Source: an uncultured Deferribacteres bacterium (lineage in GTDB: Bacteria; Zhuqueibacterota; Zhuqueibacteria; Zhuqueibacterales; Geothermadaptataceae). From it: a stretch of DNA of 25,460 nt. The notes beneath the pieces are model-generated. The model made no database searches. It was not told the DNA's origin and worked only from the letters and a program-made list of their open reading frames with translations. Made by a program: the position numbers and the translations under genes. The stretch's first letter is position 1, and the number at the start of each line of letters is the position of its first letter. The DNA is taken from NCBI GenBank assembly GCA_964014485.1, contig CAXHAT010000116.1:1-25460 (forward strand), in the 5' to 3' direction. Shown here one piece after another: positions 2,918-18,451 of the stretch.

Positions 2918-3391
2918 TTATTTCTCGATCTCAGCGCCTGAACCTTTGACCTGATAAATCGTTATCGGCCCGGTGACGGAAGTCGGATCGAAGACTTCAC
3001 CCTTCTCTTCAGCAAGATGCTCCATATAGGAGACCGCGTCTTCTTTACCCATCTCGATCTTGTAAACCTCGCCCTCAGCAATAGCTTGCTTACCTCTGGC
3101 GGAAGTCGGGAAGACGATCTCACCGTCATTCACTTTGATTTTGATTTTTTGACCCGGCTTGTCGCCGGCGATTTCGATCCAGCAGCCTTGCTGTGTGCAT
3201 ACATCGAGAATTTCTCCCTGAACAAGAACTTTCTTACCGACGAATTCTTCGGGATTCTCCAGAATATTCGAAACCATCGTTGTTTCGGTTAAGACAGGTT
3301 TTGCTCCGTAAACCTGCTTTTCATCAACAGGAGCCGAAGTGCAAGAATTGAGCATGAGAGCGAGGACGGGGATGAGACATTTCAATTTCAT
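2918..3391 (-). CDS. DUF4920-family lipoprotein (OB-fold-like)
   Basis: Lipobox LNSC; motifs VC.QQGCW, IVFP, HLAEE.G, YQVKGSGA. AAGGAAGG RBS. Confidence 0.8.
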   Translation of the reverse strand: MKLKCLIPVLALMLNSCTSAPVDEKQVYGAKPVLTETTMVSNILENPEEFVGKKVLVQGEILDVCTQQGCWIEIAGDKPGQKIKIKVNDGEIVFPTSARGKQAIAEGEVYKIEMGKEDAVSYMEHLAEEKGEVFDPTSVTGPITIYQVKGSGAEIEK

Positions 3392-3453
3392 GAGAAGGTT
3401 CCTTCCTTATAGTTTATCAGAATTTTGTGAACTCCAACCTGGCGTCTGGACAG

Positions 3454-3739
3454 TATTACAACATTGAATCGCGCATCACCCGCAGGTTTAGCGCGCGGAA
3501 ATGCGAGCCTGATTGGCTAAACGAAGGCAAAGTCTAACGCTTAAGCCCCCTGTCAGTTCGACTGACAGGTGAATCAGATTGGTTCGCGAAGCCAATTAGC
3601 TGAACGGCCTTGCTCTCCCGCCGCACAAGGCGGCAAAAGGGAGTTTAAACAAGTATTCCCGCCTTAGCTTCTCAGTCTCTTTCTCCCATCAGACAAGCTG
3701 GCAGGGAGGAAGCTCCAGTTGGAACTTAACGTTGTAATA
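3454..3739 (+). ncRNA. Putative structured ncRNA, or structured MITE, of unknown family
   Basis: Closing inverted repeat TATTACAAC 3454-3462 / GTTGTAATA 3731-3739. Internal stems at 3486-3522, 3494-3505 (GAAA loop), 3549-3569, 3578-3596, 3615-3643 and 3666-3714. Several G-U pairs form only on the + strand. Confidence 0.5.
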
Positions 3740-3776
3740 GTAGCAAGTTGAAAGCGCCGACGCGGCAATGACCAAC

Positions 3777-3795
3777 ACGCCCATCGAACGGGCGT
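3777..3795. terminator. GC-rich hairpin downstream of the GYD gene
   Basis: ACGCCC-atcgaac-GGGCGT about 30 nt after the stop at 3826; no clear U-tract. Confidence 0.3.
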
Positions 3796-3825
3796 CGCAG
3801 CGAAAGCTTTCCATAAAACCACATC

Positions 3826-4122
3826 CTATAACATCGCAGCCAATTCCACGAAATGCTTGTAGGGAATCGCTGTCCAGCTTTCAGCCTGGAGAGCGCCGTT
3901 CGAGAGGCTGATCATCGAGACTTTTGCAGCAGCGTCCGCATTCGGGGCTTCGTAAATATCGAGAAAATCATACTGCCCCAACAACGCATAGTGCGCGATG
4001 AACTTCACTTCAGGGCATTTTTGTTTGACCAGGTCCAACCAGGCTCGTCCCTGCTCGGCTCGATCTTTCATTTGCTTCAACAGCTCAGGCGATAATTTGG
4101 TCATAAGAATGTAGGTCTGCAT
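3826..4122 (-). CDS. GYD-domain protein
   Basis: 98 aa: YILMTKL...YALLGQYDFLDIYEAP...AKVS; AGGAGA RBS. Confidence 0.85.
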   Translation of the reverse strand: MQTYILMTKLSPELLKQMKDRAEQGRAWLDLVKQKCPEVKFIAHYALLGQYDFLDIYEAPNADAAAKVSMISLSNGALQAESWTAIPYKHFVELAAML

Positions 4123-4327: not shown

Positions 4328-4879
4328 CTAAGACTTCGCATCCATTTTCCGAATCGGGATCTGGCACTCGACGAAACCATCTTCGTGATAGATTTCAAAC
4401 GCCGGGCCGGCAGTCTCGTAACCGTTTTGCTGCATCCAGGCATTCAATGCCGGGTATGTTTTAAAGGGCGCCACCGCCGGATGCGCCTTGATCGTGCCAA
4501 TAATGACTTCCCGCTGCGCCAGTGAATCAATCATAAAAGGCGCTTCGACCATGATCGAGTCTTCGACGATAAACCCGACTCTGCTGCGAAGTTGATCCTG
4601 AGGCACACTTGTCGGATCATCGTGGTAGACGCCGCAAGTATTGCCTATTGCGATACTTTTTTCTTCCAGCAGCGCTCTGACTTCTTCAATTTTTGCCGGA
4701 GCCTGCTGGTAAGGGCCGATATGCTCAAGACAAACGATCTGGTACGGCCCGCGCGCGGCCTGCTGCAGCTCGACGCTTTCAAAAGCGCCGAATTTGTAGG
4801 ATATGCTCACCAAGACGATGATGATAAGCGCCAAGATGGCCGTCACGATAATCAATATTGATTTGACTGCTTTCTTCAT
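4328..4879 (-). CDS. Membrane-anchored GyrI-like small-molecule-binding protein
   Basis: N-terminal TM; HIGPY, GVYHDDP.SVPQDQLRSRVG, YPALNAWMQQNGY..GPAFEIY. Confidence 0.85.
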   Translation of the reverse strand: MKKAVKSILIIVTAILALIIIVLVSISYKFGAFESVELQQAARGPYQIVCLEHIGPYQQAPAKIEEVRALLEEKSIAIGNTCGVYHDDPTSVPQDQLRSRVGFIVEDSIMVEAPFMIDSLAQREVIIGTIKAHPAVAPFKTYPALNAWMQQNGYETAGPAFEIYHEDGFVECQIPIRKMDAKS

Positions 4880-6238: not shown

Positions 6239-6751
6239 TCACTCCGCAACGGGCAAGTAGAGTTCGAGCACGAAATCTTCTTCGGGCGCAAGCGGGTTAA
6301 GCACTTTTTCCAGCTCGTGGGTTTCGCGCCATGTGTAATTGCTCTCGTGGTCGTGGACCCAGGCGCTAAGTTTTTGCCAGATTTCAACAATGCTCCCTTT
6401 GGGATCGCCGAACAGTTTACACGAAGCGACCGCGTACAAACCGCCGGGGAAATCCTTTAATTCAACGTCCTTTTCCGGCTCGGCTTCGGGATCGACGCGA
6501 ATCCAGAGTTCATACCCGTACTCTTTCCGATTCGGCCTCGGGCCTGGATTGTTAAAGCCGAAAACGGGGTGAGCTTCCACGTCAGCGAACAGGTCGTTTG
6601 GGTTGGCGTAGGCGCGCAATTTTTCCCACGCCTCTTTTTCGGGAGCTTCACCGTCGGCATGCACAACAGCAACCTTCATCGCTTCAAGCTCGACGATGCG
6701 CACTTCAAGCGCGTCGTCGATGCTTGCGTCGGTTATGTCATTGTTTTTCAT
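6239..6751 (-). CDS. GyrI-like effector-binding domain protein (cytoplasmic)
   Basis: VRIVELEAMKVA...APEKEAWEKL...FGFNNP...YGYELWI...FPGGLYAV...W..L...LELYLPV; GAAGGAG RBS. Confidence 0.85.
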   Translation of the reverse strand: MKNNDITDASIDDALEVRIVELEAMKVAVVHADGEAPEKEAWEKLRAYANPNDLFADVEAHPVFGFNNPGPRPNRKEYGYELWIRVDPEAEPEKDVELKDFPGGLYAVASCKLFGDPKGSIVEIWQKLSAWVHDHESNYTWRETHELEKVLNPLAPEEDFVLELYLPVAE

Positions 6752-7850: not shown

Positions 7851-7938
7851 ACCCACCCCTTGCCCCTCCCAGGAGGGGATTCCCAGCGACCGCGAAGCGG
7901 TCGCGTGATTCCCATCCTGGGAGGGGTTAGGGGTGGGT
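7851..7938. repeat. REP-like palindromic element, CCCCTCCC/GGGAGGGG type
   Basis: ACCCACCCCTTGCCCCTCCCAGGAGGGGA ... TCCCATCCTGGGAGGGGTTAGGGGTGGGT with central GCGACCGC-GAA-GCGGTCGC hairpin. Confidence 0.85.
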
Positions 7939-10499: not shown

Positions 10500-10589
10500 C
10501 GTTCGCCTCCAGATTTATTTTTGCGTCGCGGAAACTGATTTTTCCCAACCTTAGCACGCGCGATGAAGAGTTTGTGGATAACTTGCCTT

Positions 10590-10797
10590 GTCCCGGAGGG
10601 ACACTCGAAAATAGCCAGCCAATTGATTGGCTGGACTGAATTTACGCCTGATGTTCTCCAAAGTCCCGTCAGGGACGATTGAAGTTTGGCGTCGTGTAAA
10701 AATCTCAATCGTCCCTGACAGGACTCAACTCAAAAAATGCGCGATGTATCCCCCGCCAGTGAACTGGCGGGCTACCCTCAACCGTCCCTCCGGAACT
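10590..10797. repeat. REP/PATE-like symmetric multi-hairpin element (GTCCC...GGGAC type)
   Basis: GTCCCGGAGGGAC; CCAGCCAATTGATTGGCTGG; AGTCCCGTCAGGGACGATTGA / TCAATCGTCCCTGACAGGACT; CCCGCCAGTGAACTGGCGGG; GTCCCTCCGGAAC. Confidence 0.8.
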
Positions 10798-10813
10798 GAT
10801 TTGAGTTATTCAC

Positions 10814-11047
10814 CTGATGTTACGCGGCTAACCAATGATATGACATTTGACTAAAAGCTTTGCTCTACGCGTCATTCCTGCGGAGGCAGGAATCCAGAAA
10901 ATGGTGCGCCGCCCCTGGATTCCTGCCTCCGCAGGAATGACCTTGAAAAACGTTTTGGGAGTCAAATAGCTTTATTTCCAATTGCAATATTCGACTCGGA
11001 CGGAAACCAATCTACAGCATCCATTATTGGCAAGCGCGTAACATCAG
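10814..11047. mobile_element. CTGATGTTACGC-TIR MITE, copy A
   Basis: Perfect 13-bp TIRs; 8-bp direct repeat TTATTCAC at 10806-10813 and 11048-11055; internal perfect 27-bp inverted pair GTCATTCCTGCGGAGGCAGGAATCCAG spanning 10871-10941. Confidence 0.85.
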
Positions 11048-12400: not shown

Positions 12401-12560
12401 ATTGTGTTACGCTGCCGGCTTTGAAATACAAACCCGATTCCGAAAGTCATACCCGCGAAGGCGGGTGTCCAACTGTCGGCGCCATTTTATGGATACCCGC
12501 CTCCGCGCATACGCGGGTATGACATAGGGGGCGCGTTTAGGGCAAAGCGCGTAACATCAG
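12401..12560. mobile_element. CTGATGTTACGC-TIR MITE, copy B (degenerate left end)
   Basis: ATTGTGTTACGC ... GCGTAACATCAG followed by TTA; internal GTCATACCCGCG...CGCGGGTATGAC 12446-12523; no clear target duplication. Confidence 0.75.
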
Positions 12561-13080: not shown

Positions 13081-13254
13081 TTGATGTTACGCGATAGCCG
13101 TGACGCCGTAGAAACTCTCGTCAAAGTCATTCCCGCGCAGGCGGGAATCCAGCCAATCGCGCACAGCCCCTGGATTCCCGCCTGCGTGGGAATGACGTAA
13201 TTGTGACGTTTCTCAGGCGCCATTGGGGAAATTTCCGAGAGTGCGTAACACGAG
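13081..13254. mobile_element. CTGATGTTACGC-TIR MITE, copy C
   Basis: TTGATGTTACGC ... GCGTAACACGAG; TTAATAA direct repeats at 13074-13080 and 13255-13261; internal GTCATTCCCGCG REP pair 13126-13196. Confidence 0.85.
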
Positions 13255-18312: not shown

Positions 18313-18451
18313 ATGATGTTACGCACCAGTTGTGAAGCCAAAGAAACTCCTGTCAAAGTCATTCCCGCGCAGCCCCTGGATTCCCGCCTGCGCGGGAATG
18401 ACGTAAAAGCGACGTTTCGCTTGAGAAATCCCCAAGAGTGCATATCATCAG
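18313..18451. mobile_element. CTGATGTTACGC-TIR MITE, copy E
   Basis: ATGATGTTACGCAC ... GTGCATATCATCAG; TTATTAA direct repeats at 18306-18312 and 18452-18458; interior aligns with copy C apart from an internal deletion. Confidence 0.85.

Follow-up and report, generated by a model that had tools for sequence, protein, structure and literature searches.

A probable MITE with IS701-family terminal inverted repeats between two small genes of an uncultured Deferribacteres bacterium

Classical MITEs of bacteria include the Correia/NEMIS elements of Neisseria, the ERIC elements of enterobacteria and the Nezha elements of cyanobacteria. They are short and non-coding, are bounded by inverted repeats, lie mostly between genes and readily form strong hairpins on both strands. 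Among complete insertion sequences (IS), those of the IS701 family are listed in a table of PMC6352166 with a single ORF, a length of 1400–1550 bp and direct repeats of 4 bp. The Acido-Lenti-1 motif, from Acidobacteria and Lentisphaerae, was published by Weinberg et al. (2010; PMC2864571) as a probable non-coding RNA.

The window analysed here is a stretch of 25,460 nucleotides from the assembly of an uncultured Deferribacteres bacterium (GCA_964014485.1, contig CAXHAT010000116.1). An initial annotation had singled out 286 bases of it as either an undescribed non-coding RNA or a non-autonomous element. The second half of this either/or reading was right in kind and the first half found no support. 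Judged from sequence comparison, the 286-base stretch is very probably (a probability of about 0.88) a non-autonomous DNA transposon (MITE) belonging to a superfamily with IS701-family terminal inverted repeats.

The element lies in a gap of 434 nt between the genes of a GYD-domain protein and a DUF4920 protein, both on the minus strand. The GYD stop codon is 86 nt from the MITE, and the left end of the MITE is 62 nt from the DUF4920 start codon. Coding capacity is small, with stop-to-stop frames of at most 63 aa overlapping the gap and of at most 45 aa wholly within the MITE. An ORF of 52 aa on the minus strand (3664–3822), which overlaps the right part of the MITE, has no Pfam match. The features of the locus are as follows.

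2918..3391, minus strand: DUF4920 protein, 157 aa, the downstream neighbour (PF16267, 42.2 bits)
3450..3453, no strand: left flanking 4-mer ACAG, where one half of a 4-bp target-site duplication is expected, now decayed
3454..3739, no strand: whole MITE, 286 bp, transposase gene absent, family inverted repeats at both borders
3454..3470, plus strand: left terminal inverted repeat TATTACAACATTGAATC, 14 of 17 positions as in the consensus TATTACAACGTTAAGTC (3 mismatches)
3454..3462 and 3731..3739: closing stem, TATTACAAC pairing with GTTGTAATA
3471..3722, no strand: unique interior, a chain of local hairpins at 3470–3494, 3549–3569, 3578–3596, 3615–3643 and 3679–3712
3486..3492 and 3516..3522: stem, GTTTAGC pairing with GCTAAAC
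3549..3569: perfect 9-bp hairpin
3578..3596: hairpin
3615..3643: nested stems
3666..3714: stems within this segment
3723..3739, minus strand: right terminal inverted repeat, 16 of 17 positions as in the consensus, reading TATTACAACGTTAAGTT inward
3740..3743, no strand: right flanking 4-mer GTAG, where the other half of the 4-bp target-site duplication is expected, now decayed
3826..4122, minus strand: GYD-domain protein, 98 aa, the transcriptionally upstream neighbour (PF08734, 72.6 bits)

Shared ends, target duplications and a candidate parent element

The two arms of the closing stem make up the core of a 17-bp terminal inverted repeat that is shared by a whole superfamily, whose ends can also be written TAYTACAACGTTAAGTY. 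In a sensitive BLAST search of the 8.4-Mb assembly, a segment of about 20 nt around the right arm matched many contigs of the same genome, often as inverted pairs. A 19-mer that covers the right end was found 29 times with up to 3 mismatches allowed. Eighteen elements of 184–286 bp are bounded by inverted copies of the consensus; the window's is the longest and the 17 others measure 184–223 bp. Solo matches to the end are truncated MITEs or chance matches at 3–4 mismatches. Under uniform base composition, about 5e-4 occurrences of a 17-mer with up to 3 mismatches, in the right orientation and no more than 400 bp from a given end, are expected by chance. What is repeated in this genome is thus the ends, in the 18 bounded elements and the truncated copies, and the interior of the window element is single-copy. 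The copies in the own genome fall into one subfamily of 9 members and one of 8, and the window element stands apart as a singleton.

Perfect 4-bp target-site duplications flank 12 of the 17 other copies (ATAG five times, CTAG and CAAT twice each, and CTAT, TAAT and TTCT). The flanks of the remaining copies agree at 3 of 4 positions in two cases, at 2 of 4 in two and at 1 of 4 in one. As several of these 4-mers are not palindromes, the matching flanks represent directly duplicated target DNA and do not simply prolong the inverted repeats. Direct duplication of this kind is the signature of transposition. At the window copy, the flanks ACAG and GTAG coincide at 2 of 4 positions, and no target duplication is evident there. 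The fallback offered by the initial annotation, a non-autonomous mobile element, is borne out by the closing stem, which is the terminal inverted repeat of a MITE superfamily with IS701-family ends and 4-bp target duplications. At the level of the family there are also the many copies, target duplications and unconserved interiors that the same annotation had named as marks of an ordinary MITE. Elements of this superfamily can be annotated by the 17-bp motif together with the 4-bp duplication.

A full-length IS with the same ends was found in a related genome (G015:C32:552492-554078). It is 1587 bp long, carries TACTACAACGTTAAGTC at both ends and is flanked by TTAA on both sides. Its one ORF of 488 aa, which includes a masked stretch read as X, encodes an IS701-family transposase (NF033540, 332.1 bits with a cut-off of 150; Pfam DDE_5, 206.5 bits). 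The length of this IS is slightly above the published IS701 range, and it agrees with the family in the other features (transposase, one ORF, 4-bp duplication). Related transposase sequence adjoins this end in a further four genomes. G027 (63% identity over aa 1–472) and G016 (65% over aa 99–472) have it nearly complete, and G021 and G026 have short C-terminal pieces only, of 35 and 26 aa, at the ends of the loci. The full-length IS has the terminal 16–30 bp in common with the MITEs of the window's genome and nothing else, and the proposal that the element retains the structured RNA of its parent was not upheld by this comparison.

In the window organism's own assembly (465 contigs, 97% complete, 8.4 Mb), a protein search, the NF033540 profile and tblastn (best E 1.9) found no IS701-type transposase. 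IS copies are often missing from assemblies. This negative result bears on present mobility in the window organism and not on the origin of the MITE. In the proposed mechanism, an IS701-family DDE transposase supplied in trans would bind the 17-bp ends and would excise or copy the MITE. Insertion would then take place at a staggered 4-bp cut, mostly at NTAN targets (ATAG, CTAG, TTAG), and would give rise to the duplication. The window copy appears to be old and is probably immobile now, in view of the 3 mismatches in its left end, the decay of its duplication to 2 of 4 positions and the negative search for a cognate transposase in the assembly.

The ends and their flanks also bear on whether the element could be an integron attC-like site or an ORF-less cassette within an array of small same-strand genes. 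Small same-strand genes are indeed numerous in the window, two of them for Cass2/GyrI-like proteins, and AAC...GTT triplets are present in the ends. Against these points, the RYYYAAC and GTTRRRY-like boxes, compared by eye with the consensus, are wrongly ordered and directly abut the outer arms. In addition, the copies elsewhere in the genome are solitary and flanked by direct duplications of 4 bp, and an IS701 transposase gene is bounded by the same ends, features that do not suit attC sites. The other palindromes of the window are a different type of repeat. An attC origin was set aside by eye as extremely improbable, and the ends are accounted for by the 4-bp duplications and the IS701 parent.

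Other repeats and genes were observed in the window. The two GyrI-like/Cass2 proteins ("integron-associated effector binding") are encoded on the minus strand at 4328–4879 and 6239–6751, among many small genes of the same strand. Near-perfect palindromes starting with GTCATTCC(C/T)GCG are present at 10871–10941, 13126–13196, 12446–12523 and 18358–18402. These are REP-like intergenic repeats with arms of 15–27 bp and a loop of 15–42 nt and are unrelated to the MITE at 3454–3739; one palindrome of the GTCATTCC type also lies inside a sequence of contig C52. An intergenic inverted repeat of 32 nt at 7851–7938 (88% complementary, 24-nt loop) is of a distinct C/G-rich type.

The insertion sites of other MITE copies in this genome were also noted. 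Several of the copies on contigs C49, C131, C61, C140, C26 and C32 lie at the extreme 3' ends of long ORFs. Two ORFs (492 and 707 codons) have their stop codon directly before the 4-bp duplication of the MITE, and an ORF of 803 codons has it within the duplication. Two more (410 and 243 codons) read into the MITE and end at a TAA inside the terminal repeat.

Distribution in related genomes and diversity of interiors

The end motif, at up to 1 mismatch, was found in 13 of the 29 genomes of the order, the window's own included. By family these comprise 12 of 19 genomes of the sister family and 0 of 9 others of the own family; a reversed control pattern gave 0–1 matches per genome. Of 125 genomes of the class, 19 contained a degenerate form of the motif, matched exactly. 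This form occurred in 14 of 19 genomes of the sister family, in 2 of 2 and 1 of 14 of two other families, in 1 of 5 of another and in 0 of 9 of the own family. The loci of the relatives yielded 15 distinct bounded elements of 102–294 bp, with perfect 4-bp duplications in 8 of 15. Ten further elements (nine from G106 and one from G124) had perfect duplications in 8 cases. The right-end variant of the window element, TATTACAACGTTAAGTT, recurs without change in several related genomes. Some of the elements in G106 and G124 are about 281–287 bp long and have exactly this variant, and their interiors are unrelated to that of the window element beyond the terminal 16–21 nt.

Two of the genomes, G016 and G023, are flagged as unpublished, and both are among the positive genomes of both motif counts. 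The flagged genomes also supply one of the five transposase–end associations (L024) and two of the four members of a subfamily of 291–294 bp that is described below (L014 and L026). Without them, the transposase link is carried by G015 and G027, together with the short pieces in G021 and G026, and the subfamily by L019 (G027) and L027 (G026).

Clustering of the interiors of 33 distinct elements (BLAST, E ≤ 1e-3) gave 11 clusters, and the window's interior is one of five singletons. In one bacterial class, a single IS701-type pair of ends is thus associated with at least 11 unrelated types of interior, nearly all of them rich in hairpins. The initial annotation had called for a search for homologs of the element in this genome and in relatives, and the genomes and collections searched held none of the interior. 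BLAST and nhmmer searches of the own genome with the interior or the 434-nt gap returned only the sequence itself and short matches due to chance or to the ends. No interior homologue was found among 40 relatives, where one 28-nt match fell outside the element, or among a further 124 genomes of the class. Exact-pattern searches, which find only near-identical copies, were made with three strings from the interior or subterminal sequence and gave 0 matches in genome_contigs and 0 in metagenome_contigs.

Further observations concern the composition of individual elements. Four loci of G106 (L042–L045), 443–540 bp long and with the same ends, consist of an element of about 285 bp into which another hairpin-rich element, unrelated to the first, is nested, and two of them have the same insert of about 250 bp in opposite orientations. 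In one own-genome subfamily, some copies (C213:281-502, C105:1489-1711 and those at the ends of C386 and C459) have an extra insert of about 23 nt inside one hairpin. The insert is GC-rich and itself hairpin-forming, which suggests a still smaller nested repeat.

In the 9-copy subfamily of the own genome (e.g., C19:35286-35477 and C140:13091-13280), two short hairpins flank a conserved long central stem. The flanking hairpins stay paired through changes on both sides (CACGC/GCGTG, CATGC/GCATG and CAAGC/GCTTG, with the copies oriented alike). Such pairing is compatible with selection on the palindromes, with their templated repair or with their maintenance at the level of DNA. It is also compatible with a reading in which the interiors are selected cargo. 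The superfamily would then spread small structured RNA modules, Acido-Lenti-1 among them, and the 252-nt interior in the window would be the sole sampled survivor of another such module, now acting on the GYD/DUF4920 transcript. The cargo reading is considered quite unlikely. A function for the unique 252-nt interior is conceivable but has no support.

One subfamily of elements in the relatives touches on a described RNA motif. Elements of 291–294 bp with the same ends, at L019 (1224–1517), L027 (55–345) and two further loci, contain inverted modules resembling Acido-Lenti-1 (RF01687). Five RF01687 matches were obtained in four such elements, at 29.5–37.0 bits against a gathering score of 37, and none is listed at the gathering threshold over 17 loci. 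The window itself has an inverted pair of RF01687 matches, at 10589–10634 on the minus strand (38.8 bits) and 10752–10797 on the plus strand (40.4 bits). Positions 10540–10840 align end to end with the 291–294-bp subfamily, with a mean column identity of 75% over 5 sequences. The segment at about 10540–10826 is an eroded copy of this subfamily, with remnants of both ends and both modules above the gathering score, and the two RF01687 matches are its inverted halves. From these alignments, the Acido-Lenti-1 RNA motif may be a module of a transposon (MITE), and its presence as an inverted pair within one MITE subfamily bears on its status as an independent RNA gene. The text supplement of PMC2864571 on individual motifs did not return the term Acido-Lenti-1. 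The term was also absent from titles and abstracts in the literature search, and beyond these sources no claim is made that the link to MITEs is unpublished.

Folding, strand and transcript context of the window element

The stems proposed for the element are all present at their coordinates and can be read directly from the sequence. The description of the element as highly structured was confirmed, with a minimum free energy (MFE) of -101.1 kcal/mol on the plus strand (z -4.38) and 0 of 200 dinucleotide shuffles folding as well. It is also antisense to its neighbours, since the flanking genes are all on the minus strand. The initial annotation had further held that at least four G-U pairs and the GNRA loop work on the plus strand only. 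Strand specificity was not confirmed for the element as a whole, whose minus strand folds as well or better (MFE -110.3 kcal/mol, z -4.35). Taken singly, four of the six local hairpins favour the plus strand by 0.6–2.9 kcal/mol, one is equal and one favours the minus strand by 3 kcal/mol. The structure is real but not strand-specific, as both strands fold about equally well.

Alignment of the element with its own reverse complement gave only local hairpins and the termini, in agreement with the view that it is not one symmetric palindrome. A global palindrome, hinted at by a weak nhmmer self-hit (E 0.011), was dropped on the same alignment. The two arms of the GTTTAGC/GCTAAAC stem are present in the sequence, and the stem itself is absent from the MFE fold both of the whole element and of the segment alone. 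A pseudoknot proposed between CTGATT (3509–3514) and AATCAG (3572–3577) is at the level of chance. When the 23-nt loop was kept and the remainder of the element was shuffled, 56.5% of 1000 trials produced a 6-mer complement outside the stem, and the mean number per trial was 1.06.

A free-standing structured RNA of the plus strand (sRNA, ribozyme or guide-like RNA), antisense to its neighbours and with the inverted ends as its closing helix, could draw on the excess of folding over shuffles (z -4.38), on the four local hairpins that are 0.6–2.9 kcal/mol more stable on that strand and on a GAAA loop in one hairpin. The minus strand is equally folded, with the lower MFE, and the pseudoknot is no better than chance, both of which count against such an RNA. 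The statement that the element matches no known RNA was sustained by a check against Rfam 15, in which nothing in 3454–3739 reached gathering thresholds, and a permissive scan of 3300–3900 gave only noise at E 1.7–9.4. A simple consensus scan of 3300–3950 on both strands gave 0 sigma-70-like promoters and 0 intrinsic terminators. The supposed closing helix is the end common to 17 other transposon copies with unrelated interiors, and no interior homologue was found from which covariation could be read. An undescribed RNA or ribozyme-like fold of the plus strand, as first proposed, was not borne out by these results and is regarded as very unlikely.

Strong folding is also the norm across the superfamily. 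Each of the 33 elements is more stably folded than its shuffled versions, on the plus and the minus strand alike (z -2.6 to -16.3). With 60 shuffles the window element has z values of -3.6 and -4.6, weaker than 30 of 32 others on the plus strand and 29 of 32 on the minus strand. Its multi-hairpin fold therefore carries no special message; a hairpin-rich interior is a general trait of the superfamily and no sign of a dedicated RNA gene. The finding removes one candidate novel ribozyme or non-coding RNA, and it illustrates that the inverted ends of a transposon can mimic the closing helix of a multi-domain RNA.

If the MITE is transcribed, this is most likely by read-through on the minus strand between the GYD and DUF4920 genes. 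Co-option as cis-acting RNA elements has been reported for some other bacterial MITEs. The copy in the window could similarly act on the minus strand, as a stabiliser or attenuator at the 3' end of the GYD mRNA or as a 5' leader of DUF4920. Its place between two genes of the same strand, 86 nt past one stop codon and 62 nt before the next start codon, would suit such a role, as would the MFE of -110.3 kcal/mol on that strand and the position of other superfamily copies at or a few bases from the stop codons of long ORFs. Random intergenic insertion would, however, yield the same position, the scan of 3300–3950 found no terminator- or promoter-like site, and the gene arrangement is not conserved in relatives. 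Co-option as a cis element is on balance unlikely.

A search for a syntenic empty site found none; the order has one close GYD homologue (G022, 83% identity), and the DNA downstream of it is unrelated. The runs listed with the window stretch are three DNA metagenome runs, all from one study, and no RNA run. Where contigs of these runs cover the two junctions, their sequence is that of the window; no contig spans the whole MITE and none joins across it, and the runs are silent on expression and polymorphism. Overall, the 286-bp element is best explained as a mobile-DNA relic of a familiar class and not as a new structured RNA gene.

Comparison with known elements

The MITE at 3454–3739 does not resemble the Acido-Lenti-1 motif, to which it has no match even permissively, and it has no similarity to the interior of the 291–294-bp subfamily. 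With IS701-family insertion sequences (NF033540; DDE_5) it shares the 17-bp ends of the 1587-bp IS and, through the other copies of its superfamily, the 4-bp duplications. It differs from them in that the window copy is without a transposase and the sequence in common is limited to the terminal 16–21 bp; moreover, the window copy retains only a decayed duplication, and the search of its genome yielded no parent IS. Like the Correia/NEMIS, ERIC and Nezha elements, it is short, non-coding, bounded by inverted repeats, intergenic as they mostly are, and able to form hairpins on two strands. The differences from these elements lie in the sequence of the ends, the family of the parent IS and the length of the duplication, which is 4 bp here. 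A further difference is that one pair of ends here bounds no fewer than 11 unrelated interiors, of which the window's is single-copy.
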